A DNA stretch of 64,000 nucleotides. Source: an uncultured delta proteobacterium. GTDB lineage: Bacteria; Desulfobacterota; Binatia; UBA9968. Of this stretch, positions 2,592 to 62,575 are shown piece by piece (the stretch's first letter is position 1; each line of letters opens with the position of its first letter). A program made the position numbers and the translations under genes. Below the pieces are notes generated by a model. That model was not told the origin of the DNA. It searched no databases and worked only from the letters and a program-made list of their open reading frames with translations. The stretch lies in the NCBI GenBank assembly GCA_963816145.1, contig CAWFJP010000001.1, positions 32,001 through 96,000 on the forward strand, written 5' to 3'.

Positions 2592-2798
2592 TTAATGTAC
2601 GGTTTGCGGTTCCGTTGCATGACTTAGTTTTCTATGAGATTTCCGCTTCAGCACCGGTTCGTGATCGCGAATCTGATCCAACCTGGTTTGAAACCAAGTT
2701 CCCTTTGGCCAATCCCAATTTTGCTGCGGTAGATCGACTTCTTCGTAGCAGCCATCATTGACGGGACTTTGTAAAAAAACCGACTCCCAAGCGTTCAT
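2592..2798 (-). CDS. Small uncharacterised protein, 68 aa (MNAWESVFLQSPVNDGCY family, copy 1)
   Basis: AAGGAGG RBS, own sigma-54 motif, clear paralog at 18607-18810. Confidence 0.8.
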   Translation of the reverse strand: MNAWESVFLQSPVNDGCYEEVDLPQQNWDWPKGTWFQTRLDQIRDHEPVLKRKSHRKLSHATEPQTVH

Positions 2799-2847
2799 GA
2801 AATGATCCTCCTTAGAATTACCAACTGGCGTTGCTGACAATTCATCC

Positions 2848-2862
2848 GCAAAGGTAATGCCA
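2848..2862 (-). promoter_or_regulatory. Sigma-54 -24/-12 promoter
   Basis: TGGCA-TTACCT-TTGC. Confidence 0.8.
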
Positions 2863-2934
2863 AGGAGTTGCTAAGATCGAGCCGCAAGCAGTGAGCGCTT
2901 TTACTTGAATTGTGAAACTGTAGCTACTTTGAGT

Positions 2935-2979
2935 TTTCAGAGTTGCGATAATCCGCCGCTCCGCTCGCCACTTTTGAGA
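2935..2979. promoter_or_regulatory. Putative tandem upstream activator sites
   Basis: TTTCA-GAGT-TGCGA (2935) and CGCCA-CTTT-TGAGA (2966), 31 bp apart. Confidence 0.55.
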
Positions 2980-3262
2980 ATAGGCAAGTTTTTTTGAACT
3001 TATTGCTTGGTCTGGATTTGCGGCGAAGCGAGCAAAGAAGCCATTGGCGGAGAGAGGGGGACACTACGGACGGCAACATTAGGAAGGCGATTAATCGCCT
3101 AGCGCCGCTTGGGATAACGGTAGAAGCGCCGGTTAGCGTGCCGTTGTCATATCAGAGATGGTCAACCACAAAACGGTAATTACAGTGAAATGACGGGGGC
3201 GGGGAATCCCACCAAACAGACCCGGGAATCTAATTACGGATACGAGAGTCGCCTCGCACGAC

Positions 3263-4543
3263 TTAGAGAACTCCCGGCGCTCTCTCCGCTAACCGTTCTC
3301 GATCACGCAACCAGCCGATGCTCTCATCACGTGCGCGCTTGAAACGTTCAAGGAGCTTACCGGTCAGGGGTTCGACGCGGGGAATCTTCAGGTTCAAAAA
3401 ATTGACCTTTTGACCGCCCTGAAGAAATTCAAAGTGCAGGTGGGGTCCTGTGGCATGGCCCGTCTGCCCGACAAAGCCAATGACATCACCGGCGCTGACT
3501 TCCGCGCCTCTACGAATCCCGGGCGCAATAGCTGAGAAATGGCCATATCGGGAAGCGTAACCGCCAGGATGAGAAATTTCGACGAAGTTGCCATACCCGA
3601 GGCGCCAGCCACTGAACGACACTATTCCGCGACCGATGGCAACCACCGGCGTGCCGCTCGGTGCCGCGTAGTCAATGGCCTGATGGGGTCTGATAACCCG
3701 AAAGATCGGATGCGATCTCGATAGGGTGTACGGCGACGATATCCGAATGTAACTTAGCGGCGCGCGGAGAAAGGATCGGCGTAACTGTTTTCCTTCGCTA
3801 TCATAGTAATTACCGCGCCCCGGCTCCGGCGAGAAATAAAATGCCCGATGAACCTGACCGTCCGCCGCCAATTCGGCGGCGCGTATTTTTCGCGGCACGC
3901 GCCGCCCGTTGGCATAATGGAGTTCGTCGACGACGACCGAGAATGCGTCGCCCGGTTGAAAGTCAGAGAAGAAATCGATGTCGTATTCGAAAATGGCTGC
4001 CAGTTCCAAGATCTGCTCGGGAGACAATCCGGCGGCAAGCCCGTTTTCATAAAGGCTGCTCGAAATAGTATTGCGAATCACTCGTGTTACAGGAGTCCAA
4101 GGGATTTCTTCTCGCTCGACCGCCCAACCTTGAGGCGTAGTCTTAGCGCGCACGATGTTGTCGTCAAACGGCACTTCCATTTCGCGTACCGTTCGATTCT
4201 CCGGATCAACGACCAAATCAATATGATTTCCCGGACGGAGTTTTCTCAGATTCAAGACAGGGCGAACCTTGGCGAGGAGATCGTGAGCGGACGGCGGCTG
4301 GACTCCGTGCCGCATTAAGACCGTCAACAGCGTATCGCCGCGCTTGAGCTTTATCGCCAGTCGTTCAAAAGCACCCGGCTTCAAAGGCTCTACGCTCAAC
4401 GAGACCTGGGGTCGTGGAGGGTTTTCCGACAAAGGAACGCACCAAAGCAGCACGGCGAGACCCACGGCGAAATGGATCGCGCTGGCGATCGACGAACGAA
4501 CTGTGGAAAAAAAAGAACGCACGAAATATCGGAGATGTCGCAT
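3263..4543 (-). CDS. M23 family peptidoglycan DD-endopeptidase (MepM-like)
   Basis: HQAID and HATGPHLHFE zinc motifs; OapA/LysM-like N-terminal region. Confidence 0.9.
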   Translation of the reverse strand: MRHLRYFVRSFFSTVRSSIASAIHFAVGLAVLLWCVPLSENPPRPQVSLSVEPLKPGAFERLAIKLKRGDTLLTVLMRHGVQPPSAHDLLAKVRPVLNLRKLRPGNHIDLVVDPENRTVREMEVPFDDNIVRAKTTPQGWAVEREEIPWTPVTRVIRNTISSSLYENGLAAGLSPEQILELAAIFEYDIDFFSDFQPGDAFSVVVDELHYANGRRVPRKIRAAELAADGQVHRAFYFSPEPGRGNYYDSEGKQLRRSFLRAPLSYIRISSPYTLSRSHPIFRVIRPHQAIDYAAPSGTPVVAIGRGIVSFSGWRLGYGNFVEISHPGGYASRYGHFSAIAPGIRRGAEVSAGDVIGFVGQTGHATGPHLHFEFLQGGQKVNFLNLKIPRVEPLTGKLLERFKRARDESIGWLRDRERLAERAPGVL

Positions 4544-4735
4544 CGCTTGAATGACAACCTTATTCCGTTGCTTCTACAGCTTTGAATTCTTCAGTCAAGA
4601 CGATCGAGAATAATTTTTCGCCGCGATTGTATCCCCTCTGCGCGCTACGTAGCTCATCGATGCGGATTTAGTATTCACAGATAATACTGAAGTAGCGAAG
4701 CACCAAGTCGAGGATCAAAAACCGGGGTAATATCG

Positions 4736-11018: not shown

Positions 11019-11053
11019 TTGCACACCTGCAAGGAACATTCTCACAGATGCAA
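11019..11053. promoter_or_regulatory. Putative tandem upstream activator sites
   Basis: TTGCA-CACC-TGCAA (11019) and TCTCA-CAGA-TGCAA (11040), 21 bp apart. Confidence 0.55.
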
Positions 11054-11136
11054 AAGGGTTTGGCACGGCAACCCGGACTGATGATATTTTCTTAGAGATT
11101 TCTGCGTTGAAACGTGAAAAGCCTATTGCATTCAAT

Positions 11137-11151
11137 TGGCACAAAGCTTGT
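11137..11151 (+). promoter_or_regulatory. Sigma-54 promoter (mlaC operon)
   Basis: TGGCA-CAAAGC-TTGT. Confidence 0.65.
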
Positions 11152-11244
11152 ACTTTAGTGACTTGAGATAAGATGGGCGTGGCGGAGAGGCATCGAGATC
11201 GCAAAGATCCAACGGCGAATTAACCGGTCTGGAGATTTCAGTGA

Positions 11245-14080: not shown

Positions 14081-14123
14081 ATTAAATTGGTTTGGCGATG
14101 GGACCTATAGTGCCTTACGATCA

Positions 14124-14138
14124 GCAACAACTGTACCG
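14124..14138 (-). promoter_or_regulatory. Sigma-54 promoter (zwf remnant)
   Basis: CGGTA-CAGTTG-TTGC. Confidence 0.6.
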
Positions 14139-14319: not shown

Positions 14320-14364
14320 TTGCGTAACCGAAACTTTCCCGCCCGGTGTTTCGCAAGTGTGACA
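14320..14364. promoter_or_regulatory. Putative tandem upstream activator sites
   Basis: TTGCG-TAAC-CGAAA (14320) and TCGCA-AGTG-TGACA (14351), 31 bp apart. Confidence 0.55.
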
Positions 14365-14405
14365 AAATCGTTGCCTGGCCGCAGCGATAAACCGGCGATT
14401 ATTAC

Positions 14406-14420
14406 TGGCACCTGGATTGC
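14406..14420 (+). promoter_or_regulatory. Sigma-54 promoter (glgP)
   Basis: TGGCA-CCTGGA-TTGC. Confidence 0.8.
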
Positions 14421-14481
14421 TTTTTTGTCGAGGGATCACAATCCATGACAAGTTCGCAGTCACATCGGCATAGCTCCGGTA

Positions 14482-14613
14482 GAGACTGTGTCGCAACTGT
14501 CATTTCGAGGTGAAGCCGAGAAATCTCTTCTTCGTATGTGGCTGAAAACACGAGATCCCTCGCTGCGCTCGGGATGACAAATGTGGGGCATTTGCGCATT
14601 ACGACACAGCCTC
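14482..14613. mobile_element. 132-bp MITE, copy 1 (IS5/IS1031-like ends) carrying a REP-like doublet
   Basis: TIRs GAGACTGTGTCG/CGACACAGCCTC, 3-bp target duplication GTA; inverted copy at 61501-61632. Confidence 0.85.
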
Positions 14614-18810: not shown

Positions 18811-18902
18811 GCGAATTAACCTCCTTCAAGTCCCGTAACTCAAGTGGGAGAGCTAGCACCCCGAGTTGCTGTGTTGATCGATGCGATTGCCAATGAGTAT
18901 CC

Positions 18903-18917
18903 GCAAACGTGATGCCA
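18903..18917 (-). promoter_or_regulatory. Sigma-54 promoter
   Basis: TGGCA-TCACGT-TTGC. Confidence 0.8.
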
Positions 18918-21342: not shown

Positions 21343-21357
21343 TGGCATAAATTCTGC
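21343..21357 (+). promoter_or_regulatory. Sigma-54 promoter
   Basis: TGGCA-TAAATT-CTGC. Confidence 0.65.
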
Positions 21358-21491
21358 CACATAGTAATTCGTGCCACACGAACCGCCGGCGTCAGCCATG
21401 CGCACCCAGCGCAGGTCGTGCGGCCGTAGGGCCAAACGCCGCGGGAGGAGCACAATGACGAGCCTGGTAGCGGCAAGGAGAAGCAATTGAG

Positions 21492-26709: not shown

Positions 26710-27280
26710 AACTCGATCTCCTTTAGTTGCGCATAATGATCAGCAGTCTTTCACAGAAGGCATGATAAACTTTTTCTATGCATGCCAGAGAATCGCGAGG
26801 CACGGCCGTTCACGGCACCCCGGGAAAGGTAACTACTTTATGCCATCTTCGCCATAGGCAATCCCAGCCATGTTCACTTTCCTTTACAAAGTTGTGTTTG
26901 AATCCGTCTCATAAAATTTTCCTAATCTTCCACCGGTTCGCGAACCTGGTTCAACTTACCCAATCCTCAAAGGTCTCCGCGCCGCCGCACTTGATAGCGA
27001 TCCACCGCCGGGACTAATTGAGCAATTGATATGCCGCGAAAGATTCAATCGATGTCGTAGCCTTTTCACGCGTCCTTTCGCAGATCTGGCAATATCGCGA
27101 GTCACTTCTCTCAGGGATGCAGAAATTACCGCAGACATGATCTTCCGTGGACGGCAATACAATGCCATCAGAGACGTCGTTTTTGGATTTCGACTGAGAC
27201 TCTTTCAGCGTCCTCTTGGTTTCATCCATACAGCGCGCCAAGGACGCCATCCGCCGCGCTCCGGCCAACGCAACTAATGA

Positions 27281-27987: not shown

Positions 27988-28012
27988 CCATCAACCACAT
28001 GACAAGCCAAGC

Positions 28013-28027
28013 GCAAACTTCATGCCG
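28013..28027 (-). promoter_or_regulatory. Sigma-54 promoter
   Basis: CGGCA-TGAAGT-TTGC. Confidence 0.7.
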
Positions 28028-33286: not shown

Positions 33287-33318
33287 CGCTCACCTCCTGG
33301 ATTCAAGATAACCCTAGA

Positions 33319-33333
33319 GCAATTGGCATACCT
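33319..33333 (-). promoter_or_regulatory. Sigma-54 promoter (dnaK)
   Basis: AGGTA-TGCCAA-TTGC. Confidence 0.55.
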
Positions 33334-33396: not shown

Positions 33397-33441
33397 TGTC
33401 ATTGACGGGAATCGGCGACCGCGCTTTTGTCAGTTATGAAA
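33397..33441. promoter_or_regulatory. Putative tandem upstream activator sites between divergent promoters
   Basis: TGTCA-TTGA-CGGGA (33397) and TGTCA-GTTA-TGAAA (33428), 31 bp apart. Confidence 0.6.
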
Positions 33442-33471
33442 AGTTTTTACCGTTCCACGTGGCTGTGCTGC

Positions 33472-33486
33472 TGGCACGACGCTTGC
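33472..33486 (+). promoter_or_regulatory. Sigma-54 promoter
   Basis: TGGCA-CGACGC-TTGC, full consensus. Confidence 0.85.
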
Positions 33487-33578
33487 GCTCTTATTGAATT
33501 GACGGGAGGGCCATCGAGCAGCCGGCGCTGGTTCCCGCCCAAGCTTTTGCAGCGAACCGGCTGGAAAAGGAACTGAAC

Positions 33579-36426: not shown

Positions 36427-36515
36427 AGAGCCTCGCAGTCTTAATGCGTCAGACAATTCTGGATCGGCCGAAGGAATTGGCGCTCCAGCGCACTGCCATC
36501 TACGTGAACACCAGA

Positions 36516-36530
36516 GCGATAACCGTGCCG
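36516..36530 (-). promoter_or_regulatory. Sigma-54 promoter (usp-MFS)
   Basis: CGGCA-CGGTTA-TCGC. Confidence 0.55.
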
Positions 36531-36636: not shown

Positions 36637-36681
36637 TTTCATCCTTGCGAATTTTTTCGCCTGTTTCTGTCAGATATGAAA
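36637..36681. promoter_or_regulatory. Putative tandem upstream activator sites between divergent promoters
   Basis: TTTCA-TCCT-TGCGA (36637) and TGTCA-GATA-TGAAA (36668), 31 bp apart. Confidence 0.65.
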
Positions 36682-36711
36682 AAGCTTCCAGCGCCTGCCG
36701 GTGCGATGGTC

Positions 36712-36726
36712 TGGTATGTCGATTGC
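36712..36726 (+). promoter_or_regulatory. Sigma-54 promoter
   Basis: TGGTA-TGTCGA-TTGC. Confidence 0.75.
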
Positions 36727-36762
36727 TCGATTGTTCAATCGCAGCCAAGGAGATCTGACAAA

Positions 36763-38360: not shown

Positions 38361-38413
38361 ACAGGTTCACCTCCTCCCTGTTCAGATTCCGCTCCCCTTG
38401 CTCTTTGAATAAA

Positions 38414-38428
38414 GCAAACGTTGTACCA
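38414..38428 (-). promoter_or_regulatory. Sigma-54 promoter
   Basis: TGGTA-CAACGT-TTGC. Confidence 0.75.
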
Positions 38429-38654: not shown

Positions 38655-38669
38655 TGGCACGACCTTTGC
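38655..38669 (+). promoter_or_regulatory. Sigma-54 promoter (archease-rtcB operon)
   Basis: TGGCA-CGACCT-TTGC, full consensus. Confidence 0.85.
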
Positions 38670-38701
38670 CATAAAAACTCACCTGTAGGAAATCGTCTCG
38701 G

Positions 38702-39124: not shown

Positions 39125-39134
39125 GGCATACGAA

Positions 39135-41903: not shown

Positions 41904-41918
41904 TGGCGTCTCTATTGC
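41904..41918 (+). promoter_or_regulatory. Sigma-54 promoter
   Basis: TGGCG-TCTCTA-TTGC. Confidence 0.7.
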
Positions 41919-41963
41919 GTAATTACAGGGCTGTAAGGCTCATGAGCGTTTATGGGGGCAGCG

Positions 41964-46154: not shown

Positions 46155-46169
46155 CGGCATAGAGATTGC
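46155..46169 (+). promoter_or_regulatory. Sigma-54 promoter
   Basis: CGGCA-TAGAGA-TTGC. Confidence 0.7.
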
Positions 46170-46220
46170 TCGCTCGCTTGGAGCAGGATTACTTTACGCA
46201 TCTAAGAACAGAGGTGTGAA

Positions 46221-48213: not shown

Positions 48214-48228
48214 TGGCATGCGGTCTGC
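48214..48228 (+). promoter_or_regulatory. Sigma-54 promoter
   Basis: TGGCA-TGCGGT-CTGC. Confidence 0.65.
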
Positions 48229-48286
48229 GTAATAAAGTCCTACCAGGCGAACGATCCGGCGGTCAAACTGAAAGCGGTAAGCCATC

Positions 48287-50751: not shown

Positions 50752-50805
50752 AACCACCTCCGCCGGTTATGTCGGAAAATTGGAGATCCGACATTTACGA
50801 GAAAC

Positions 50806-50820
50806 GCATAGAGCGTGCCA
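50806..50820 (-). promoter_or_regulatory. Sigma-54 promoter (SHOCT-CBS-PRT operon)
   Basis: TGGCA-CGCTCT-ATGC. Confidence 0.75.
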
Positions 50821-50994: not shown

Positions 50995-52353
50995 TTATCC
51001 TTCCACGCCCAATTTTTCGATTTTGCGATAAAGTGTCGACAAGCTCAGCCCGAGCAACTCCGCGGCGCGGATCTTATCTCCGGCGGTCTTGCCCAGGGTC
51101 CGCTCGATGTGGGTTTTCTCGTAGAGTTCGATCGCCTTGGTCAAATTATCTTCCAAACTATAATCGCCGTCGGCCGCAGCGTAACTATGGCCTGGCAGAT
51201 CCGCCGGCGCGATCCATTCACCGTTGCCGAGAATCATCGCGCGCTCGAGCACGTTGTCGAGCTCGCGAATGTTACCCTTCCAGGGCAACGACATGAGGAT
51301 GCGCATGGTCGCGCTGTCGACGCCCTTGTAAGCGGTTTTCATCTCGATATTATGGCGGTGGATCAGATGTTCGACCAGCGCCGGCAGATCTTCGAGCCGC
51401 TTGCGCAGCGGCGGGATGTCGATTTCAAAAACACAGAGCCGGTAGTAGAGATCTTCGCGAAAGCGCCCCGCCTCCACTTCTGCTTTCAAATCGCGGTTGG
51501 ACGCCGCCAAGATGCGCACGTTGACCTTCACCGGATTGGTCGAGCCCACCGGCAAGACAGTCTTTTCTTCCAGCACGCGCAGAAGTTTCGGTTGCAGGCT
51601 CATCGGCATCTCGCCGATCTCGTCGAGAAAAATCGTCCCGCCGCGGGCGCGCTGAAATAAACCTTCTTGAGAATTGACCGCGCCGGTGAACGAGCCTTTC
51701 ATATGGCCGAACAGTTGGCTTTCCAATAAGTTCTCGGGAATCGCGCTACAGTTGATCGGCAGAAAGACATTGTCCTTGCCCAAGCTATTGGCGTGGATGG
51801 TGCGGGCGACGACTTCCTTGCCGACGCCGCTCTCGCCGCTGATCAAAACAGTGGTCGGCGTCGGCGCCACCTTCATGATCATCTTGACGATTTCCTGCAT
51901 CGCCGGACTGCGCCCGAGCGGCCGGTCGGGAGCAAAATGGCCGCTGACTTCGCGCCGCAAAAGCTGGTTCTCCCAAGCCAGTTGCCGATGGCTCATGAGG
52001 TTTTGAATTTTGCGCAGGACATCGTCGAAGACCAACGGCTTGAGCATGTAATCCTGGGCGCCGGCGCGGATCGCCTCGACGGCGGTTTCCACCGAGGCGT
52101 GGGCGGTCATCAGCACGACCAAGGTCTGCGGCGAGACTTCACGGACATGCTTGAGCACGGCCAAGCCGTCCGCCCCCGGCATCATCAGGTCGGTCAAGAC
52201 CACATCGAGATCGAGCTGATTGATTTTGCTGATCCCCTCTTGCCCGTCGGCGGCCTCATGCACGTCGTAGCCTTCACCGCGGAGCAGCTCAACGAGGCTT
52301 TCGCGAGCGCTCTCCTGATCTTCGACCACAAGTATGTTGCCGTTTGAGCTCAT
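50995..52353 (-). CDS. Sigma-54-dependent response regulator (NtrC/AtoC family)
   Basis: Receiver DLMMP; AAA+ GESGVGKE, GSFTGA, FLDEIGE, FREDLYYRL, WKGNIREL; Fis-type HTH. Confidence 0.95.
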   Translation of the reverse strand: MSSNGNILVVEDQESARESLVELLRGEGYDVHEAADGQEGISKINQLDLDVVLTDLMMPGADGLAVLKHVREVSPQTLVVLMTAHASVETAVEAIRAGAQDYMLKPLVFDDVLRKIQNLMSHRQLAWENQLLRREVSGHFAPDRPLGRSPAMQEIVKMIMKVAPTPTTVLISGESGVGKEVVARTIHANSLGKDNVFLPINCSAIPENLLESQLFGHMKGSFTGAVNSQEGLFQRARGGTIFLDEIGEMPMSLQPKLLRVLEEKTVLPVGSTNPVKVNVRILAASNRDLKAEVEAGRFREDLYYRLCVFEIDIPPLRKRLEDLPALVEHLIHRHNIEMKTAYKGVDSATMRILMSLPWKGNIRELDNVLERAMILGNGEWIAPADLPGHSYAAADGDYSLEDNLTKAIELYEKTHIERTLGKTAGDKIRAAELLGLSLSTLYRKIEKLGVEG

Positions 52354-52364
52354 CGGGTTGCTAT

Positions 52365-52408
52365 TTGCACTTGTGCAAAATCGCCCTTCGCCTTTCGCAA
52401 ATTTGCAA
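52365..52408. promoter_or_regulatory. Putative tandem binding sites immediately upstream of the activator gene
   Basis: TTGCA-CTTG-TGCAA (52365) and TCGCA-AATT-TGCAA (52395), 30 bp apart. Confidence 0.6.
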
Positions 52409-52487
52409 AGAAATAGCCATTCGCCTGCGTGATACTTTCTTGAGCGGGTAATTCAGCAATTAACAGGCCAGCAGGCTTTGGGTCATC

Positions 52488-54867
52488 TCATAAGATGGCC
52501 GGCAATTGGATCGAAAATGTCGTCCCCTTGCCCGCTTGGCTGCTGTAGCCGATGCTGCCGCCATGGGCCGCGAGGATTTGCCGGACAATGGTCATACCGA
52601 TGCCGGTGCCAAAGGATTTCGTTGTAAAGAACGGTTCGAAGATGTCAACCTCGGACGGTATCCCCGCGCCGGTGTCGGTAACTTGCAAAGTCACCGCCGC
52701 CTTGTCGGTCGATCCGGCAAACATGAGACGGCCGCCCGTCGGCATCGCCTCGACGGCGTTCTTAGCTAGGTTCAAGATCACTTGTTTCATCTTGTCGATA
52801 TCGACGCGTACTTTCGGCAGGTCCGGGGCGAATCGCGTTTCGATCTTCACGCCGCGCTCTGCATATTCGGGTATTTCGATCTCGATCGCTTCCGCGACAA
52901 GCTCGGCCAAACTGACAGTTTGAAAATGGTAAGTCTCCTTGCGCGACAGCGAGCGAAAATCTTGCAGCAGCGAATTGAGCCGGGAGATTTCGCTCTTCAG
53001 CCGCATCAATGTCGATGACACCTGGTCGTCCAGCGCCGGCAACTGCTTTCTCAGACGTTGCTCCAGCAGCTGGATTGTCAATGACATGCCGTTCAGTGGA
53101 TTGCCCAGTTCATGGCCAAATTTTGCCGCCATAGTGCCGATGGTCGCCAAGCGCTCGCTCTCCACCGCCAGTTGCTGCAAGTGGCTCTTGTCGGAAATAT
53201 CGCGGATAAATGCGCCGTATTGAACTTCCTCAACCGTGGGAATTTTCGCCACTGACAACTCGATCGGAAAGGTCTCGCCGTTCTTGCGCTTGGCGGTTAC
53301 CGTACGGATACGGCCGATGGCATGAGCTTCGCCGGTCCGTTCGTACCGTTCGATGTAGCCGTCATGCTCCGAGGTATAGGGCTCGGGCATGAGCATGTTG
53401 ACTTTCTGACCGACTACCTCTTCCGGCTGGTAGCCGAAGATCCGTTGCGCCGCTGGATTGAACAGGACGATTCGCGCCTGCCGATCGATGGACACCACCG
53501 CATCTTGGGTCGTTTCGATCAGACTGCGCACCCAGGCTTCGGCGCGCCGCTGCTCGGTCACGTCGCGCATGACCACTTGGACCGCTGTGCCGTCATCCCA
53601 TGCCAGCGGCGCGGCAACGGTCTCGGCATAGACAAACGAACCGTCGAGACGGACTCGGCGTTGAATACTCGGCGGGTTGGGCTGGCCCGACGCCAGCGCG
53701 CGCTCGTAGCGCTGCTCGACTTCGGCTTTTCGTTCCGGTTCGACGAACTCGAACGGCGAGCAGCCGAGTAGATCTTCCGGCGAAGCCGCGCCGAGAATAC
53801 GGGCCGCCGCGTTGTTGACGTAGACGATTTTCTTTTTGAAAACAACCAACACCGCGTCCGGGTTGACCTCGACCAGAGTTTGATAGCGCGACTGCGCCGC
53901 TCTGAGTTCCGCTTCAACGGTTGTGCGGTGCTGGAGTTCCGTCGAAAGCTCGCGGGTTCCCTGCTGCCACGCGCAAGGCCAAGCGCGCATCGCGAAACGA
54001 CACCAGATAGCCGATCGCGCTGAGGAACAGCGCACTGGCGAGCATACCGATATCGAAGATCACCAAGTCGCGGCGGATCGCGCCGTTCCAACCCTTGACC
54101 GGAATTGCGGCAAGCTCCCAGTGCCCGTCCGGCAGATTGATGCGGTGGACAACCGGACTAGAATCGAAGACCATCTGATTACCGAAGAACACGCGTCCGC
54201 GTCCGTCCCTAAGCGCCAGTTGCGTGCGTTGCTGATTTGTTATTCCGACCTCAGCCAAGATCGGCGGTAAGTCGAGCGCTACATTGACGAAACCCCAGAA
54301 ACTATTCTTGGTGAAATATCGCTAATCGAGCGATCGCGCCGAATCCACCTACCAGCAACTCATAGGGGCCGCTAATAACGATCTTACGCGTTTTGATCGC
54401 ACGTGCGACATCTTCGATCGCACTTCAGCATGGGATGGTTGAAGACATTGCGCCCCAGGATCGCCTCGTTGCCGACCCGCGGATAGACGAGCCCAACCAT
54501 CCCGCCGGCGCGAAGAGAAATTACGTACACCAACAACGCTTTCGGTAAGTCGACGGGCAAACGGTACGAAGTTGTTGGCAATCTCCGTCTTTGAGGAAAT
54601 GGTAGCGACCCAGCCGCGCAAAACCGTAAGATCAGATCGAAACGCCGCGTAGGTCGATTGTCAGCGCGTTGCCGTAGGGATCAAGTTCAGCGGCCAGGTC
54701 GCTGCGCAGTTCGATCAGCAGAAGTTGCGATACCAGACATGAACGCCCCACGAGAGTATCGCCAAAAGCGCGACGAAGATGAGAAGCGCAACTGCCAGAG
54801 CCTTGCGCCTCGGCGGCGCCAAGTAGCTGGAAACTGGACCAGTATCAATTGGGATGGAATCCGCCAC
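52488..54867 (-). CDS. CHASE-PAS-PAS histidine kinase with FixL-type heme PAS; N-terminal part broken by several frameshifts
   Basis: HELGNPL H-box, NLAKNA, DTGAGI, FEPFFTTK..GTGIG; PAS LMPEPYTSEHDGYIERY..TG..HAIGRIR; CHASE/TM fragments in shifting frames 53960-54867. Confidence 0.8.
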
Positions 54868-54960
54868 GCGATATATTTCGCATTGTCGCGAAATGAATTC
54901 AAACTCGCTCCTGGCAGCGTCAACACAAAGCACAGCCGATCGGCGTGGAAGCCAAATCTG

Positions 54961-55537: not shown

Positions 55538-55579
55538 CTCCCGGATTTCATCAGATAACCAACTGCAGCAATTGACTAC

Positions 55580-55594
55580 GCATTCTTCTTGCCA
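55580..55594 (-). promoter_or_regulatory. Sigma-54 promoter
   Basis: TGGCA-AGAAGA-ATGC. Confidence 0.55.
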
Positions 55595-56133: not shown

Positions 56134-56148
56134 TGGCATCTTCTTTGC
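56134..56148 (+). promoter_or_regulatory. Sigma-54 promoter
   Basis: TGGCA-TCTTCT-TTGC. Confidence 0.75.
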
Positions 56149-56197
56149 TCATGTTATCTAGCAGGTTAATACCGGTGGGCTTAAACCCGAGGTAGTT

Positions 56198-56308
56198 ATG
56201 GCAAACGAAAATGAACTCTTTTTTCTAGTTCTGATCATCGTCTTAACCATGATCATGCACTTCATTCTCGCGTGGAAGGGATCGGGCCCTCATAGCAAGA
56301 CTAAGTAG
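56198..56308 (+). CDS. 36-aa single-pass membrane peptide (not in ORF track)
   Basis: GAGGT RBS; MANENELFFLVLIIVLTMIMHFILAWKGSGPHSKTK. Confidence 0.6.
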   Translation: MANENELFFLVLIIVLTMIMHFILAWKGSGPHSKTK

Positions 56309-57469: not shown

Positions 57470-57475
57470 GGAGCG

Positions 57476-57481
57476 ATTATA
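57476..57481 (-). promoter_or_regulatory. Sigma-70 -10 box, probable leaderless transcript of the AEP gene
   Basis: TATAAT separated from the ATG by 6 nt; no RBS. Confidence 0.5.
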
Positions 57482-57602
57482 ACGCGCTGATTGCCGACCG
57501 CGAAGCGGCGGCAGCCAAAGCATCGCCGCCGACCCGGCTGGTTTTACTGAAGCCATGTTATCTAGAAAATGCAAAATACGCGCCCTCGATTCACAAGCAA
57601 TT

Positions 57603-57652: not shown

Positions 57653-57792
57653 GTGTTCTAATTCAGAAATTCGTTGATCAAAAACTGTGTTGATTCAGAA
57701 AATCCCCCCTTTGGAAAAGGGGGGAAAGGGGGGATTTTCTTGAGCGTACCGACTGCAAATCCCCCTCAGTCCCCCTTTTTCCAAGGGGGAGG
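57653..57792. repeat. CCCCCTTT..AAGGGGG hairpin doublet with an IS630-like left end
   Basis: Two inverted hairpins 57700-57792; GTGTTCTAATTCAGAAATTCG resembles the end at 63081. Confidence 0.7.
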
Positions 57793-57892
57793 TTTGGAAC
57801 GATTTAGCCAAGGTAATTATCGGCCAGGCCAATCGTCGGATCGGAGAGCGGCGAAGCGCAAAATCAATCGAACAGCTCGGGCCAAAATTACG

Positions 57893-57907
57893 TGGCATAG
57901 CTCCTGC
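57893..57907 (+). promoter_or_regulatory. Sigma-54 promoter (BON-FmdB-CBS operon)
   Basis: TGGCA-TAGCTC-CTGC. Confidence 0.7.
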
Positions 57908-57935
57908 AAAGTCTCTACTCGGAGGCCATGGGTCA

Positions 57936-58709
57936 ATGCTCCACAACCAGAAAGAAGCAGCGCGCCGGCAAACCACCAAGCGACAAGTTGGCCACGGCGC
58001 AATTATTAACCGGATCGGCGCGGCGCTGGAAAAGGAAACCAGGGTCAATCTGCATCGTCATGCGATCAAGCTGGAGTTCACCGGTGACGATCTCGCGCTA
58101 ACCGGCGAGCTGGAGGATGTCGCTGCGAAAAAGATCGCCCTAGAATTGGCCGCGACGGTCGCGCCGGGAGTGGGCCTCGTCGATCGGCTGAGAGTAACGC
58201 CGGCACAGTCCATGAGCGACGCGGAATTGCGTGATCATCTGCTCAAAATATTGCTCGACGAGCCGGCGTTGGAACATTGCTTGTTGCACAGCCGGCTACC
58301 GCAACAATTACAAACCCATCGTAATGACGTCCCAGAGCCCGTCGGCACCATTGTGGTCGAAGTCCGCGACGGTGTGGTCACACTCAACGGCGAAGTACCG
58401 AGCCTGTCGCACAAGCGCCTCGCCGGCCTGCTCGCTTGGTGGGTTCCCGGCTGCCGTGACGTGATCAACGGTTTAGCCGAGGTGCCGGCGCAGAAAGACA
58501 ACGACGACGAGCTCACCGACGCGGTGCGTCTGGCTCTCAAAAAGGATCCTTTCGTCAATGCCACGAAGATGCAGGTCAGGAGCAAAAATGGCGTTGTCAC
58601 CTTAAACGGATTAGTCCCAAGCGAGACCATGCAACGAATCGCCGTGCGCGATGCTTGGTTCATATTCGGGGTCAGGGATGTCGTCAACAAGATTCAGGCC
58701 AAATGGTGA
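57936..58709 (+). CDS. Multi-BON domain protein
   Basis: Three BON repeats, e.g. DGVVTLNGEV and GVRDVVNKI. Confidence 0.88.
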   Translation: MLHNQKEAARRQTTKRQVGHGAIINRIGAALEKETRVNLHRHAIKLEFTGDDLALTGELEDVAAKKIALELAATVAPGVGLVDRLRVTPAQSMSDAELRDHLLKILLDEPALEHCLLHSRLPQQLQTHRNDVPEPVGTIVVEVRDGVVTLNGEVPSLSHKRLAGLLAWWVPGCRDVINGLAEVPAQKDNDDELTDAVRLALKKDPFVNATKMQVRSKNGVVTLNGLVPSETMQRIAVRDAWFIFGVRDVVNKIQAKW

Positions 58710-58914: not shown

Positions 58915-59343
58915 ATGAACGCCGCCGCCCAAGCCTTCCTTGAAAAAACCGTCGCCGAAGTCATGAGCACCGATTTGATAACCTTGAAGCTCAACGACAC
59001 CCTGCGTTTGGCCGACGACATGTTCAACTTGGCGCAGGTCCGCCATTTTCCAGTTCTCGACGGCGACATGGTCGCCGGCATCGTCAATCAAGACGATCTG
59101 CTGCATGCCTCGATGGTTTCCTTGGCGCGACATCCTAACGATTCGCCGCGCGAAGCCCTCGGCGCCGTCGTGGTCAAGGACATCATGAAAACGGCGATCA
59201 CCATCAGCCCGGACCTGCCGATCCGCGCCGCCGCCAAAACCATGATCGAAAATGGTATCGAAGCTTTGTTGGTGGTGAGCGGTGAAAAGTTACTCGGCTT
59301 GGTGACGCGGACCGATTTGCTCCGCGAACTGGCCAAAGCCTGA
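58915..59343 (+). CDS. CBS domain protein
   Basis: VRHFPV and LLGLVTRTDLL CBS pair. Confidence 0.88.
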   Translation: MNAAAQAFLEKTVAEVMSTDLITLKLNDTLRLADDMFNLAQVRHFPVLDGDMVAGIVNQDDLLHASMVSLARHPNDSPREALGAVVVKDIMKTAITISPDLPIRAAAKTMIENGIEALLVVSGEKLLGLVTRTDLLRELAKA

Positions 59344-59362: not shown

Positions 59363-59974
59363 ATGATCGTTGGCAACCGCATGACCCAAGAACCGATCAC
59401 CGTAGACCCCGAAGATTTATCGATCCGCGCTTCGCTTAAGATGCAAGCAGGCGGGTTTCGCCGCCTGCCGGTGGTGAGCGACGGCAAGCTCGTCGGCATC
59501 ATTAGTGAGCGCGACCTGCGCGAACACCGCGGCCATCTGGAACAGATCAAAATCAACGGCATCATGACCGAAAACCCGATTACCGTAACCCCGACGACTA
59601 CCGTCGAGGAAGCCGCGCAGATCATGCTGGAACGGCGGGTCGGCGGCCTGCCGGTGGTCGCCGACGGGCGCGTGGTCGGCATCGTTACGGCAAGCGATAT
59701 TTTGCGCGCCTTCCTCGATGTAATGGGCGCATCGCATGGCGGCAGCAGCCGGATCGATTTTCTCCTCGAGGGTGAAGAGCATGGCTTCGTCGAGGCCACA
59801 CGCTTAGTCGCTCGTGAAGGCGGCGAAGTCCTAGGCGTCGGCACCTATCGGGAAAAACTTGGCGACAATCCAGTTTGCTACCTGCGCCTAGTCGGCGGCA
59901 CGCCGGATGATTTCGCCAAAGCCCTGCGCAGCAGGGGCTTCACTGTATTGGGTGTTCATAAAATCGGCGGCTAA
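59363..59974 (+). CDS. CBS plus ACT-like domain protein (AcuB-like)
   Basis: LVGIISERDL and GIVTASDILRAF followed by a GSSRID.. ACT-like domain. Confidence 0.85.
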   Translation: MIVGNRMTQEPITVDPEDLSIRASLKMQAGGFRRLPVVSDGKLVGIISERDLREHRGHLEQIKINGIMTENPITVTPTTTVEEAAQIMLERRVGGLPVVADGRVVGIVTASDILRAFLDVMGASHGGSSRIDFLLEGEEHGFVEATRLVAREGGEVLGVGTYREKLGDNPVCYLRLVGGTPDDFAKALRSRGFTVLGVHKIGG

Positions 59975-60038: not shown

Positions 60039-60467
60039 ATGTCACTACAACCCTACTGCCGCAAACCAGTGATCAAGATTTCACCCGAAACCAGCATCAC
60101 CGAAGCCTGCCATTTGATGGAGCAAAACAACGTCGGCTCTCTGGTCGCTGAGAAAAACGGCAAACTTTGCGGCATCGTCACCGACCGCGATATCGCCCTG
60201 CGTGTCGCCGGGGCCAAGCGCGATCCGGACAAGACCACCGTCAAAGACATCATGACACCGGATCCGATCCGCATCTCGGTCGACAAGGACCTGCATCATT
60301 TGACCGCGCTGATGCATGCCTACCATGTCCGGCGCGTGCCGATCGTCAACGGCTTCGACACCACGCTCGGCATCGTTACACTGGACGACTTGATCGCCCA
60401 GTTGGGCGATCAAATGGCGGATATCGGCAAAGCGATCTCCGAAGAGTTTCTCCAGGGCAATGCTTAG
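60039..60467 (+). CDS. CBS domain protein (Hrp1/Rv2626c-like)
   Basis: GIVTDRDIALRV, VRRVPIV and GIVTLDDL motifs. Confidence 0.88.
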   Translation: MSLQPYCRKPVIKISPETSITEACHLMEQNNVGSLVAEKNGKLCGIVTDRDIALRVAGAKRDPDKTTVKDIMTPDPIRISVDKDLHHLTALMHAYHVRRVPIVNGFDTTLGIVTLDDLIAQLGDQMADIGKAISEEFLQGNA

Positions 60468-60818: not shown

Positions 60819-61304
60819 TTAAGCCGCCCACAGCGGCCGCGTTTCGTCGCTCAACAGAGCACGAATCTCCTCGCGATGCTTCGTTGCGTCCGCCTCGATA
60901 CGATCAAGCAAGGCGACGAGCGCCGGGAATTCGGCGCCGATCGCAAGCTTGTCTTCGGCGATTTCCGCGATACAGCGGCGCTCGTCATCAAGATCGCTGC
61001 GCAGATACTCCCAAGGATTATCATGGCTACAATAAAAAGCGGTTACCGTCGGCGGCGTGCCGCCGAGGCCAACGATGTTTTCCTCGATGACACGGACGTG
61101 ATCGGCTTCTTTGGCCGCCATACGCAGTAAGGCCCAGCGGATCTGGTCATCAGCGATTCTCCCGGCGTGCTGGCGAAAGCGCATCACATGCTGCTTCTCG
61201 CGGACGTAGCGATGACACAGCACATCGAGAACCCTATCCCGGGCGTCACCGGTGGCGTTATTCGAGTCCGGGTGAACCGCGAACCCTGTGTTTTGCAGCA
61301 ACAT
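60819..61304 (-). CDS. Ferritin-like di-iron protein
   Basis: RYVREKQH, EADH, DERRC and DATKH four-helix ligand pattern; paralog at 61906. Confidence 0.8.
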   Translation of the reverse strand: MLLQNTGFAVHPDSNNATGDARDRVLDVLCHRYVREKQHVMRFRQHAGRIADDQIRWALLRMAAKEADHVRVIEENIVGLGGTPPTVTAFYCSHDNPWEYLRSDLDDERRCIAEIAEDKLAIGAEFPALVALLDRIEADATKHREEIRALLSDETRPLWAA

Positions 61305-61360
61305 ACCCGACTCCTTTCCGGCAGCTTCCAGACCGCCCTACTTAGCTACCAAAGGATTGA

Positions 61361-61375
61361 GCAAGGACGACACCA
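61361..61375 (-). promoter_or_regulatory. Sigma-54 promoter
   Basis: TGGTG-TCGTCC-TTGC. Confidence 0.65.
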
Positions 61376-61436
61376 AACCGGAATTGATGCCGTCGGGAAG
61401 CTGAAGGGACATCAGTCAATTTGGCGGAGCGACGAT

Positions 61437-61481
61437 TCGCAGAGCCGAGAATAACCCCGGCGTCCGGTATCAGTTCTGCTA
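61437..61481. promoter_or_regulatory. Putative tandem upstream activator sites
   Basis: TCGCA-GAGC-CGAGA (61437) and TATCA-GTTC-TGCTA (61468), 31 bp apart. Confidence 0.55.
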
Positions 61482-61632: not shown

Positions 61633-61786
61633 CAAGTGGAGACAGAGTTGTAAGCGGTTTTCTTCTTGCCCCGTTGCGGCGTATCCCGCTCCCGCTTGAG
61701 GGGGAGGATGAAGCTGGGAGTGCGGTCCTTACCTTACAATGCTATCCGCAATCGTTTGCGCAACCTGCGCAAATCTTCAGAGGACT

Positions 61787-61871
61787 CACCGCGGAGACGC
61801 CGAGCACGCGGAGTAAAGAGATTTTTGATGAAGATCATTCCGAACTCTGCGAACTCTGTGCCTCTGCGGTG
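61787..61871. repeat. Inverted nonamer-type repeat (CACCGCGGAGACGCCGAG...CTCTGTGCCTCTGCGGTG)
   Basis: Imperfect long inverted repeat downstream of the ferritin-like gene. Confidence 0.65.
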
Positions 61872-61905
61872 CCATTCCGTTTTTTTTCGGCGCTGCGACG
61901 TGTTC

Positions 61906-62427
61906 TCACGCCGGCCAGACCGACTGCGGGTCGCTGCGCGCCGCCATATCGCGAATCTCGCTGCGGTGTCTTTCGCCGTCTTCGTAGATCCGTTCGAGCA
62001 TCGCGGCGATATCCGGAAGCTCGTTGCGTACCGTCTGCATTATTTCGATCAAATCGTCCGAGCAGTGTTTTTCTTCCTCAAGATCAGCGAGTAAGTACTG
62101 CCAGCTATTCCTACTCGTCGGCGGCTGCTTCGGCACGTTGGGGATAGTCCCGCCAAACAGCGTGATCTTCTCCGCCAGCCACTCGGCGTGACGCGCCTCA
62201 TCCGCCGCGATACGCAACAGCTTCTCGCGGAACTGCGGATACTGCATCTGTTCGGCGTGCGCGGTATAGCGTCGCACATGCTGCATCTCTTCGACATAAC
62301 GGGAACTGAGAATTTTGATTACATCCCGGTAGCCGCCCGGTGAAACGCCAAGAAACTGCCGCCACCAATCCGACCAGCTTTTCTCATAAGTCATAAGCGC
62401 GACCCTTCCCTCATTAGTTTTCATCAT
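61906..62427 (-). CDS. Ferritin-like di-iron protein (start 62427 or 62394)
   Basis: RYVEEMQH, EARH, EEEKH and DGERH four-helix ligand pattern. Confidence 0.85.
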   Translation of the reverse strand: MMKTNEGRVALMTYEKSWSDWWRQFLGVSPGGYRDVIKILSSRYVEEMQHVRRYTAHAEQMQYPQFREKLLRIAADEARHAEWLAEKITLFGGTIPNVPKQPPTSRNSWQYLLADLEEEKHCSDDLIEIMQTVRNELPDIAAMLERIYEDGERHRSEIRDMAARSDPQSVWPA

Positions 62428-62452
62428 CCTACCCTTCCTACAAATAGCTATA

Positions 62453-62467
62453 GCAAAGGTCGATCCA
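62453..62467 (-). promoter_or_regulatory. Sigma-54 promoter
   Basis: TGGAT-CGACCT-TTGC. Confidence 0.6.
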
Positions 62468-62530
62468 CTCAGCGATATCGAGAATTTCCGGCAAGCAGGC
62501 AGCGGGGCCATCAAAAAGAGTTTAGCTGAT

Positions 62531-62575
62531 TTGCAGAACTGAGAGGCGTTCGGAGTGCTTGTCGCAAAACTGACA
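62531..62575. promoter_or_regulatory. Putative tandem upstream activator sites
   Basis: TTGCA-GAAC-TGAGA (62531) and TCGCA-AAAC-TGACA (62562), 31 bp apart. Confidence 0.65.

Follow-up and report, generated by a model that had tools for sequence, protein, structure and literature searches.

A sigma-54 promoter island with a phased upstream palindrome and a predicted heme-kinase/activator pair in an uncultured Binatia genome

The DNA considered here is a 64,000-nt stretch of contig CAWFJP010000001.1 from an uncultured bacterium of the Binatia, and this whole stretch (G000:C1:32001-96000) is called the window below. Two neighboring minus-strand genes in it encode a cytoplasmic sensor histidine kinase (52488..54035) and an NtrC-type enhancer-binding response regulator (50995..52353), which we call enhancer-binding protein 1 (EBP1). 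Among the surrounding genes, many of which are preceded by sigma-54 promoter motifs, are those for a tandem universal stress protein (USP), CBS-pair proteins, DnaK, archease and the RNA ligase RtcB, a phosphoribosyltransferase, and a ferritin-like protein. The initial annotation of the region had read it as a clustered low-oxygen or dormancy-type program run by sigma-54 and an enhancer-binding protein. Our analysis supports that core reading because the promoters share a phased palindrome, the activator is the single one nearby, the kinase is of the FixL type, and more genes resembling the DosR regulon of Mycobacterium tuberculosis were found off the window.

The genome, G000, comprises 7.82 Mb in 31 contigs at 57% G+C, and its marker genes indicate 99.5% completeness and 6.7% contamination. 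A simple dicodon model called 7171 genes, at 83.7% coding density, and genes in the window were identified from Pfam. Four related genomes (G003, G019, G017, and G014) were compared throughout; they are not independent samples.

Sigma-54 sites and the palindrome upstream of them

The 22 GG-N10-GC motifs listed in the initial annotation are all present, each within one base of its given position. A plain consensus count was not decisive: with up to two mismatches allowed, the whole window holds 43 matches versus 32.1 ± 5.7 in shuffled sequence, and 4 of 100 shuffles reach 43. We therefore built an organism-specific matrix of 21 columns, for which 210 intergenic sites from the rest of the genome served as the training set and the window was excluded; sigma-54 scores given in bits below come from this matrix, and palindrome scores come from the palindrome matrix described later. 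Sixteen of the 22 motifs reach at least 12 bits (2847, 14123, 14406, 18902, 28012, 33318, 33472, 36712, 38413, 38655, 41904, 46155, 48214, 50805, 56134, and 61360), and in these the GG and GC lie within a TGGCAC-N5-TTGCW-like consensus, the sequence element of sigma-54 promoters. Three others score 9.9 to 10.7 bits (21343, 36515, and 57893), and the remaining three, at 11137 (5.2 bits), 55579 (8.7 bits), and 62452 (7.9 bits), fall below 9 bits. Three good sites had been missed, at 27021(-) (18.0 bits), 52455(-) (16.7 bits), and 10885(-) (12.6 bits), the last without a convincing gene. The statement that each motif lies just upstream of a gene holds for 22/22 once four short open reading frames (ORFs) are added, at 18607-18810(-), 48287-48457(+), 56198-56308(+), and 38169-38360(-).

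The comparison of site density with the rest of the genome, which had been proposed as a check, came out clearly. With a threshold of 12 bits, the window contains 22 sites, while 796 sliding 64-kb windows average 5.63 (standard deviation [SD], 3.03; maximum, 23); at least 22 sites are reached by only two of them, both overlapping and both on the window's own contig. When counting is restricted to intergenic sites aimed at a gene start within 300 bp, the window has 13, compared to a mean of 1.59 (SD, 2.13; maximum, 14). The lead shrinks at 14 bits, where the window has 10 such sites and 10 windows on contigs C1, C2, and C30 also reach 10. Of 425 near-consensus sites genome-wide, 176 lie in intergenic DNA, which makes up 16.4% of the genome, and 129 of these 176 aim at a gene start within 300 bp; sigma-54 promoters are thus common in this organism, which has a single rpoN gene (PF04552, 212.6 bits). 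The dense zone exceeds the left end of the window and runs from C1:7099 to C1:93360 (window -24900 to 61360).

Expectation maximization (EM) on 19 promoter-upstream regions of the window yielded an 18-bp palindrome, TTTCnCA-N4-TGnGAAA, with a log-likelihood of 70.5, compared to 29 to 37 for six shuffled sets. The palindrome matrix was trained in the window only, so scores within the window are circular, and the palindrome was therefore put to four independent tests. In leave-one-out EM, 11 of the 19 regions gave P values below 0.05 and 7 gave values below 0.02 against a null of 2515 random intergenic windows. A genome scan with the window-trained matrix found 118 palindromes of at least 16 bits; the window holds 13 of these, compared to an expected 0.97. 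A sigma-54 site follows 15 to 260 bp downstream of 23 of the 118, and 14 of these 23 lie outside the window. A matrix-free pattern search found 20 matches with the palindrome followed by the promoter but 2 when the promoter half was reversed. Finally, palindrome/sigma-54 pairs recur in the four relatives.

The palindromes follow a regular geometry. Among 156 strong sites in G000 and the four relatives, 25 of 35 partner sites found within 21 to 60 bp sit at 30 to 31 bp. Distances from the palindrome center to the GG cluster at 38.5, 48 to 50, 58 to 59, 69.5, 79 to 80, 89.5, 101.5, and 108 to 110 bp, and in G000 they show a 10.5-bp periodicity (n = 30, R = 0.83, P of ~1e-9 in a Rayleigh test), also when only pairs outside the window are counted (n = 21, R = 0.82, P of ~7e-7). 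Adding the four relatives gives n = 60 and R = 0.72; since orthologous promoters are not independent, the G000-only figures are safer. Such phasing is what would be expected if dimers of an enhancer-binding protein faced the sigma-54 holoenzyme from one side of the helix.

The possibility that the palindrome belongs to a repeat family was rejected, since the promoter regions have no other extended similarity. Enrichment of exact 6- to 8-mers was not used, since divergent promoters with a common upstream region raise the counts, and searches for exact dyads and gapped 4-mer pairs found none common to three or more regions; the palindrome is too degenerate for exact-word searches. Nor does it fit the Rex, FNR/CRP, DosR, CIRCE, or IHF consensus, in the forms that we take these to have.

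The kinase, the activator, and the wider regulon

EBP1 consists of a receiver domain (PF00072) with a DLMMPG motif, an AAA+ domain (PF00158, 231.6 bits) with a GSFTGA loop, and an HTH_8 domain (PF02954), the domain set of the NtrC family. No NCBIfam equivalog matched at its cutoff, the best being AtoC at 429 versus 714. The genome encodes 34 strong PF00158 matches, all above 218 bits, and EBP1 is the only one on the 431-kb contig. Its nearest named records come from metagenome-assembled genomes of a Thermodesulfobacteriota bacterium (95% identity) and a "Candidatus Binatia" member (62%), and 15 of the 24 other genomes in the genus contain an ortholog with 80% identity or more (14 of 23 without the unpublished G005). 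A 16.7-bit sigma-54 site (52455..52470, minus strand) lies 102 bp before the EBP1 start, and between the site and the start codon are two tandem palindromes, 30 bp apart (52362..52411; 18.0 and 20.3 bits). At -67.5 and -97.5 from the GG, they share the helical phase of the upstream sites. In 4/4 relatives, where the activators are 83 to 97% identical, a site of 14.4 to 17.2 bits stands 102 to 106 bp before the activator start and the leader palindromes are conserved. The site and the in-phase leader palindromes suggest autoregulation.

The adjoining kinase contains two PAS domains, a HisKA domain, and an HATPase domain (Pfam). Its second PAS domain (PAS2; residues ~163 to 288) matches the FixL heme domains 1d06 (E value, 4e-30) and 1dp6 (E value, 9e-30) and the heme PAS domain of DosP (E value, 3.5e-16). 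In the stretch EHDGYIERY...AIGRIRTV, His224, Arg230, and Arg244 line up with FixL's proximal His and its two pocket Arg residues, on what we take to be the FixL numbering of these three residues. The second Arg aligns with the sole residue that differs between entries 1dp6 and 1y28, presumably the O2-contacting Arg220. Homology, the His, and both Arg residues thus all mark PAS2 as a FixL-type heme domain by sequence, and heme binding and O2 sensing are predicted for the kinase. The same His/Arg motif is kept in the activator-adjacent kinases of 4/4 relatives, that of G017 having two such domains. FixL-like PAS domains are found in 17 of 301 sampled genomes of the phylum, and an activator lies directly downstream only in G000 and one genome of the same family. 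In FixL, O2 switches the kinase off; by this analogy, low oxygen would therefore turn the regulon on. A palindrome of 15.0 bits (54875..54894; counterparts of 16.7 bits in G003 and 15.7 bits in G019) is located ~840 bp upstream of the kinase gene, and no sigma-54 site of at least 6 bits is found near it.

A second FixL-like heme-PAS kinase (C23:78593-78961, L166; 368 amino acids [aa]), with a PAS domain 65% identical to that of the first, is an orphan in that no response regulator adjoins it; its neighbors resemble a PolX-family polymerase and an aminopeptidase. Several members of operons outside the window, as well as these neighbors, have PDB sequence matches only or no name.

A sigma-54 site of at least 12 bits with a palindrome of at least 14 bits located 20 to 260 bp upstream was taken to mark a promoter of the regulon. 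Forty-one promoters genome-wide have this arrangement; the window accounts for 12 of them, and 16 fall in C1:7-96 kb, a segment amounting to 1.1% of the genome. Smaller groups of pairs occur on C2 (5), on C29 (3), and at C1:133-150 kb (3). Outside the window, the stress genes behind such promoters encode Hsp20 with four tandem USPs, DUF2267 and DnaJ proteins, a ribosome hibernation factor fused to a cold-shock domain and accompanied by a USP, HtrA, more CBS and USP proteins, and a ferritin/Dps-like protein (Pfam). Genes assigned to oxygen-poor metabolism comprise two sets for pyruvate:ferredoxin oxidoreductase, malic enzyme with an acyl-coenzyme A (acyl-CoA) synthetase, 2-hydroxyglutaryl-CoA-dehydratase-like subunits, a formate/nitrite transporter, and a radical SAM protein. 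Isoamylase and a second glucan phosphorylase represent carbohydrate use, and nicotinate phosphoribosyltransferase is a further target. With these genes, the case for low oxygen and the resemblance to the DosR gene set both become stronger.

One further target is a second activator, EBP2 (C29:112455-113399, L145:1155-2099), which lacks a receiver domain and is the third gene of an operon whose promoter has a sigma-54 site of 20.4 bits and a palindrome of 20.7 bits. Its AAA+ and HTH domains share 55% identity with those of EBP1, and homologs occur across the genus, including in genomes without EBP1. Two other stretches of the genome are also rich in oriented sigma-54 sites (10 to 12 per 64 kb): C2:16000-100000, with five palindrome pairs of the same regulon, and C30:120000-216000, with three other activator genes.

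On balance, we favor a low-oxygen switch in which a heme-PAS kinase controls an NtrC-type activator and, through it, about 41 sigma-54 promoters, 16 of them in one island. The window would be the core of this island, 86 kb of sigma-54 promoters (C1:7-93 kb) within one large enhancer-dependent regulon. The kinase would bind heme in its FixL-type PAS domain and, once O2 left the heme, would phosphorylate EBP1. Dimers of EBP1 could then occupy the palindromes, single or in 30- to 31-bp tandems on one helix face 38 to 110 bp upstream of the GG, and assemble an ATPase ring that opens the sigma-54 holoenzyme complex. Predicted targets are the island and about 25 scattered promoters. They would include chaperones and stress proteins (USPs, CBS-pair proteins, Hsp20, and DnaK/DnaJ), archease-RtcB and the hibernation factor acting on RNA and ribosomes, and envelope and storage proteins (BON, SPFH, and ferritin-like proteins). 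On the metabolic side, they would include the phosphoribosyltransferase, glycogen-degrading enzymes, pyruvate:ferredoxin oxidoreductases, the formate/nitrite transporter, and a 2-hydroxyacyl-CoA-dehydratase-type enzyme with its activase. EBP2, itself a target, may amplify the response. This set looks like a switch to an oxygen-poor, slow-growth physiology. DNA binding by EBP1, the direction of regulation, and the transcription starts are inferred, and the oxygen response is predicted from homology.

Conservation of the sites, a further check proposed with the initial annotation, held in part: among 22 orthologs of first genes, 14 keep a site of at least 12 bits and 8 do not. Sites are kept before the activator (4/4), the small protein (2/2), and archease (1/1). 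The comparison class is not a clean negative, since 13 of its 55 members have a site; 7 of the 13 belong to sigma-54 operons in the part of the island outside the window, and 3 are the CBS gene in genomes where BON is absent.

Competing explanations and known systems

Several observations weigh against a single EBP1-run low-oxygen regulon. Leave-one-out EM finds no significant palindrome in 8 of the 19 promoter regions (those of 28012, 46155, 48214, 56134, and 57893 and the one upstream of 52455, together with 38413/38655 and 55579, which are weak), so membership in one regulon is only predicted for these promoters, and the archease-RtcB promoter's own palindrome scores only 12.4 bits. No sigma-54 site precedes the kinase gene, and the single orthologs of DnaK, the FmdB-type protein, the 106-aa ORF, and the cytochrome c at 46236 each lack a site; the counterpart of the DnaK site 33318(-) in G014 scores 5.4 bits only. 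Only 16 of the 41 pairs are in the island, the remainder being scattered. The leader palindromes of EBP1 are downstream of its promoter, where repression is equally possible. FixL-type heme domains can also bind CO and NO. Gene calls rest on a simple in-house caller. Neither starts nor strand nor level can be read from the assembled metatranscriptome contigs from soil and sediment (four studies, 90 to 100% identity, covering 6 to 16% of sampled words), and some of this material may be carried-over DNA; the X7 contig 41785-42085 runs straight across the 41904 promoter.

Who reads the palindrome is the point at which the strongest alternative enters: EBP2 or another activator might be its main reader, with the kinase and EBP1 serving a few local promoters and the island being a mosaic in which several regulons answer to different signals. 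EBP1 and EBP2 have DNA-binding helices so similar that these do not separate the two proteins. Five genomes of the genus without an EBP1 ortholog still have 7 pair matches, versus 1 in the control, so EBP2 or another of the 34 activators may read the palindrome; one of the 7 is beside an EBP2 gene (G021:C67:27848). In G000, EBP2 sits between two top pairs (C29:111181/111279 and C29:115384/115440), and the palindrome-less promoter regions and the number of activators in the genome would also fit a mosaic. Yet EBP1 is the sole activator on the contig that carries 16 of the 41 pairs, and its leader has the two best-conserved palindromes, present in 4/4 relatives. The EBP2 operon itself lies behind a pair, which fits a cascade rather than independence. 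In five genomes with EBP1, 20 pair matches and no control match were found, about twice the density seen without it (20 per 33.5 Mb versus 7 per 27.1 Mb), a weak difference because the genomes are related; confounded by relatedness and by assembly quality, this comparison cannot assign the binding protein. The palindrome is enriched, arranged in tandem at 30 to 31 bp, and phased to promoters, and the protein bound there is likely EBP1; that EBP2 or a mosaic of regulators accounts for the island seems unlikely to us.

We consider it still less probable that the set is a general stress, stationary-phase, or energy-starvation program, or a response to CO, NO, or redox state, in which oxygen would not be the signal and the DosR likeness would reflect generic stress genes. 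USPs, CBS proteins, Hsp20, DnaK, BON, ferritin-like proteins, and the hibernation factor are indeed general stress genes. Moreover, the best NCBIfam match of the kinase, FixL, reaches 241 bits, far under the 850-bit cutoff; the kinase has another, uncharacterized PAS domain; and heme PAS domains are known to bind other gases. Set against this are the conserved His and both Arg residues of the heme pocket, including the Arg aligned with the 1y28 residue, and the presence among the targets of oxygen-sensitive or anaerobic-type enzymes, namely two pyruvate:ferredoxin oxidoreductase sets, the 2-hydroxyglutaryl-CoA-dehydratase-like enzyme with its activase, the radical SAM protein, and the formate/nitrite transporter. 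In Myxococcus, moreover, CBS and USP genes are described as hypoxia induced through a heme kinase (PMC11841059). A purely random or compositional origin of the motif cluster, with AT-richer intergenic DNA as its cause, is scarcely credible and can be set aside: the plain consensus lies marginally above shuffled sequence, but the window stands at the top of the genome-wide range when the matrix is trained elsewhere, its sites aim at gene starts and are conserved before orthologs, the matrix-free pattern test separates real from reversed pairs, and a second, independent motif is phased to them outside the region used for training.

The closest published system is NmpRSTU of Myxococcus xanthus, in which the globin-heme kinase NmpU acts through the hybrid kinase NmpS on the NtrC-like NmpR; NmpR binds GCGCA-N5-TGCGC at seven hypoxia-induced sigma-54 promoters that serve 23 genes, among them a CBS gene, a USP gene, a cbb3 oxidase, and hemN (PMC11841059). 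Common to the two systems are a heme kinase feeding an NtrC-like regulator of sigma-54 promoters, an inverted repeat with a CGCA/TGCG core, a regulator controlling its own operon (there described), and CBS-domain and USP genes, with hypoxia induction shown there and predicted here. The initial annotation had known of no description of such wiring, but sigma-54-run low-oxygen control of CBS and USP genes is already in print.

The two systems also differ. A FixL-type heme-PAS kinase adjoins the regulator here, whereas the globin-coupled NmpU works via NmpS; the kinase described here has no globin match in Pfam, and no hybrid kinase adjoins it. NmpR tandems are mostly 14 to 15 bp apart, edge to edge, and those here are 30 to 31 bp apart, center to center. 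NmpR sites have an N5 spacer and GCGCA arms, and the palindrome here has an N4 spacer and TTTC/GAAA arms. Seven promoters there compare with about 41 here, 16 in one island; the regulon there includes the cbb3 oxidase and hemN, and the one here includes RtcB, Hsp20, the hibernation factor, pyruvate:ferredoxin oxidoreductase, and glycogen enzymes. EBP1 is ~40 to 45% identical to any named match. The present system stands apart in pairing a FixL-type sensor directly with the activator, in its palindrome and the spacing rules that go with it, in how large and how clustered the regulon is, and in its RtcB, Hsp20, and hibernation genes. Literature searches, which covered few subscription journals, found neither a FixL-type kinase paired with a sigma-54 activator nor this regulon.

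The likeness to FixL-FixJ is confined to the sensor, where a PAS2 domain homologous to the FixL heme domain, with its His and two Arg residues, is followed by HisKA and HATPase domains; the partner is an NtrC-type sigma-54 activator rather than a FixJ/LuxR-type regulator. With the DosR regulon, it is the gene content that is shared. The background facts given in the initial annotation are borne out by PMC5309233, in which Rv2623-Rv2631 form a DosR block, Rv2631 is RtcB, and Rv0571c is a phosphoribosyltransferase; USPs, a CBS-pair protein, archease/RtcB, and a phosphoribosyltransferase, with genes in blocks, are common to that regulon and this one (PMC5309233). The correspondence in gene content is by domain family only, and the two hosts belong to different phyla. 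Hsp20 and the ribosome hibernation factor, whose mycobacterial counterparts we take to be HspX and Rv0079, extend the likeness outside the window, and the orphan FixL-like kinase on C23 possibly gives this system two heme kinases, as with DosS and DosT. In the DosR system, GAF-heme kinases act on a NarL-type regulator that uses sigma-70-type promoters and a different box. Here, a PAS-heme kinase, an AAA+ activator, sigma-54, and an unrelated palindrome are found.

The Burkholderia cenocepacia lxa locus spans ~50 kb with ~50 low-oxygen-induced genes, several USP genes among them, and has one inverted-repeat motif at 17 intergenic points and a few loci elsewhere; the motif, TGA-N6-TCA, is Anr/FNR-like, and its authors propose CRP/FNR-family regulators (PMC3721108). 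The lxa locus is like the island in being a physical low-oxygen cluster with USP genes and a repeated inverted repeat and unlike it in that sigma-54 is not involved. A 2025 survey predicted sigma-54 sites before UspA genes in Planctomycetia and mentions neither hypoxia nor RtcB.

A different precedent exists for RtcB itself. In Escherichia coli, the enhancer-binding protein RtcR, which has a CARF-type sensor domain, is specific for the sigma-54 promoter of rtcBA. RtcB likewise appears here behind a sigma-54 promoter under an enhancer-binding protein, but EBP1 has a receiver domain and appears to serve dozens of promoters; it scores 303.6 against the RtcR NCBIfam model (cutoff, 650), through the AAA+ part only. 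In the known module, the RtcR gene is divergent from rtcBA, and the divergent neighbor of archease-RtcB here is a small lipoprotein ORF.

We put forward only tentatively the broader proposal that a DosR-like dormancy and low-oxygen regulon, with about 40 promoters under a FixL-PAS/NtrC/sigma-54 circuit, arose independently in an uncultured lineage of soil or sediment. Its unusually strict grammar would lie in the 31-bp tandems, the 10.5-bp phasing, and an in-phase enhancer downstream of the activator's own promoter; EBP2 would be a feed-forward amplifier, and the orphan kinase on C23 would be to the first kinase as DosT is to DosS. If this is true, the same survival kit (USPs, CBS proteins, a small heat shock protein, RtcB RNA repair, ribosome hibernation, and the phosphoribosyltransferase) has been recruited at least three times under unrelated oxygen circuits, DosR, FNR/Anr-like, and sigma-54/NtrC-like, which would argue that the kit is a functional unit for oxygen loss and not a mycobacterial peculiarity. 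It would also provide a second, nonpathogenic system for the unexplained members archease-RtcB and the Rv0571c-type phosphoribosyltransferase, a compact set of sigma-54 enhancers, about 40 in number and naturally varied in distance and tandem number, on which face-of-helix rules of enhancer-binding proteins could be tested, and a prediction of how an abundant uncultured soil lineage copes with fluctuating oxygen.

Individual promoters and neighboring genes

At the left of the window, a sigma-54 site at 2847..2862(-) (18.4 bits; orthologous sites of 15.0 bits in G003 and 18.1 bits in G014), with palindromes at 2932-2951 (16.2 bits) and 2963 (10.9 bits), precedes a 68-aa ORF (2592-2798, minus strand). 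A close parallel is found at 18902..18917(-) (18.9 bits), where palindromes at 19017-19036 (17.4 bits) and 18986 (13.3 bits) accompany a 67-aa ORF (18607-18810, minus strand). The two proteins are paralogs without a known family, with near-identical strong sites and tandem palindromes, and orthologs with the same promoter occur in G003 and G014.

The weak site at 11137..11152(+) (5.2 bits) has a palindrome at 11037-11056 (14.5 bits) and is followed by an MlaC gene (11245-11850) and three more genes. Farther on, the divergent sites 14123..14138(-) (13.7 bits) and 14406..14421(+) (19.2 bits) flank a palindrome at 14348..14367 (20.2 bits; 18.4 bits and a null fraction of 0.002 in the leave-one-out analysis). 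The plus-strand site precedes genes for an alpha-glucan phosphorylase (14583-17213) and a cytochrome c (17666-18535), and the minus-strand site precedes a 109-aa G6PD_N-like ORF (13751-14080, minus strand). The latter matches only the N-terminal NAD-binding part of glucose-6-phosphate dehydrogenase and is either a truncated gene or a stand-alone domain.

A weak site at 21343..21358(+) (9.9 bits) is paired with a strong palindrome at 21276-21295 (21.2 bits), in front of genes for a flavin reductase (21492-22100), an M20 peptidase, and a GNAT-cNMP protein. The unlisted site 27021..27036(-) (18.0 bits; palindrome at 27075-27094, 19.8 bits) has a cytochrome c gene (26269-26652, minus strand) 369 bp downstream. 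Site 28012..28027(-) (17.3 bits), before a 65-aa ORF (27637-27834, minus strand), has no palindrome (leave-one-out null fraction, 0.88). The next two sites, 33318..33333(-) (15.5 bits; Hsp70/DnaK gene, 31412-33286, minus strand) and 33472..33487(+) (19.9 bits; 106-aa ORF, 33579-33899), share a palindrome at 33425..33444 (18.7 bits; leave-one-out null fraction, 0.007).

Likewise, a palindrome at 36665..36684 (17.1 bits; partner at 36634, 10.8 bits) lies between a weak site at 36515..36530(-) (10.7 bits) and a site at 36712..36727(+) (17.1 bits). The former precedes genes for the tandem USP (35551-36426, minus strand) and an MFS/Atg22 transporter (34227-35549, minus strand), and the latter precedes a cytochrome-c-like gene (36763-37191); its counterpart in G014 has a 13.6-bit site and a 15.6-bit palindrome.

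Site 38655..38670(+) (16.3 bits; weak palindrome at 38528, 12.4 bits) stands in front of the genes for archease (38702-39124), RtcB (39117-40565), a Band7/SPFH protein (40644-41348), and a DUF1488 protein (41451-41759), and its counterpart in G014 has a 17.1-bit site and a 16.3-bit palindrome. Divergent from it, 38413..38428(-) (16.1 bits) precedes the 63-aa putative lipoprotein ORF (38169-38360, minus strand), with a Zn_protease gene (37485-37991, minus strand) beyond. This ORF has a signal-peptide, lipobox-like start, and similar DNA is found at C18:107999-108213.

Genes covered by the metatranscriptome contigs are those for the USP, MFS, RtcB, SPFH, and DUF1488 proteins, together with the beginning of the activase gene. 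Over the lipoprotein ORF, contigs 38016-38387 and 37845-38252 reach depths of 336 (X3) and 98 (X4), compared to 1 to 25 for their neighbors; Rfam gave no match in the whole window at gathering thresholds or in 37950-38450 at E values up to 1. The X3 contig ends at 38387 in adapter-like letters, ~15 nt short of the predicted start, a lone case that was not taken as a finding, and uncovered stretches such as 38390-38706, between the divergent promoters, were not taken as evidence. With many pieces at 90 to 95% identity, the contigs probably come from relatives, and all they show is that RNA libraries contain these genes in the versions of relatives.

Next comes 41904..41919(+) (15.2 bits; palindrome at 41815-41834, 16.6 bits; counterparts of 15.8 bits in G019 and 11.6 bits in G014), before a gene for a BcrAD/BadFG-type activase (41952-46130). 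Two sites follow that have no palindrome, 46155..46170(+) (15.9 bits), before a cytochrome c gene (46236-46661), and 48214..48229(+) (14.8 bits), before a 56-aa FmdB-type zinc-ribbon ORF (48287-48457). Site 50805..50820(-) (13.8 bits; counterparts of 11.8 bits in G003 and 13.2 bits in G019) has its palindrome at 51012-31 (18.4 bits), within the 3' end of the activator gene, and serves genes for a SHOCT protein (50437-50751), a further protein (50144-50398), two CBS proteins (49690-50133 and 49157-49693), and the phosphoribosyltransferase (48486-49133).

To the right of the kinase gene, the weak site 55579..55594(-) (8.7 bits; palindrome at 55702, 13.7 bits) precedes a 141-aa ORF (55106-55531, minus strand), and its G003 counterpart has an 8.6-bit site and a 17.4-bit palindrome. 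Site 56134..56149(+) (19.0 bits; 15.1 bits in G019), with no significant palindrome, precedes a 36-aa membrane-peptide ORF (56198-56308). A weak site at 57893..57908(+) (10.7 bits) is followed by BON (57936-58709) and three CBS-pair genes (58915-59343, 59363-59974, and 60039-60467); where relatives lack BON, a separate site precedes the first CBS gene (20.3 bits in G003, 13.3 bits in G017, and 12.4 bits in G014). The ferritin-like gene (60819-61304, minus strand) has a site at 61360..61375(-) (13.6 bits) and a palindrome at 61434-61453 (17.4 bits). Last, the weak site 62452..62467(-) (7.9 bits), with tandem palindromes at 62559 (15.4 bits) and 62528 (14.0 bits), precedes a 173-aa ORF (61906-62427, minus strand), and its counterpart in G019 has a 12.5-bit site and a 16.9-bit palindrome.

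Elsewhere on the contig, the operon behind one palindrome/sigma-54 pair has as its second member a ThsB-like TIR-domain gene (C1:134390-134782, L132:990-1382). In the window, a stand-alone receiver-domain protein is encoded between the kinase region and the 56134 promoter (55719-56126, plus strand); it may act as a phosphate sink or provide the kinase with a second output. A protein of 378 to 413 aa with a PriCT_1 primase C-terminal domain, encoded in mid-island (56333-57574, minus strand) and 61 to 71% identical in relatives, may be a mobile-element remnant. Upstream of the BON promoter, at ~57740-57830, runs of C and G form a hairpin-like inverted repeat.

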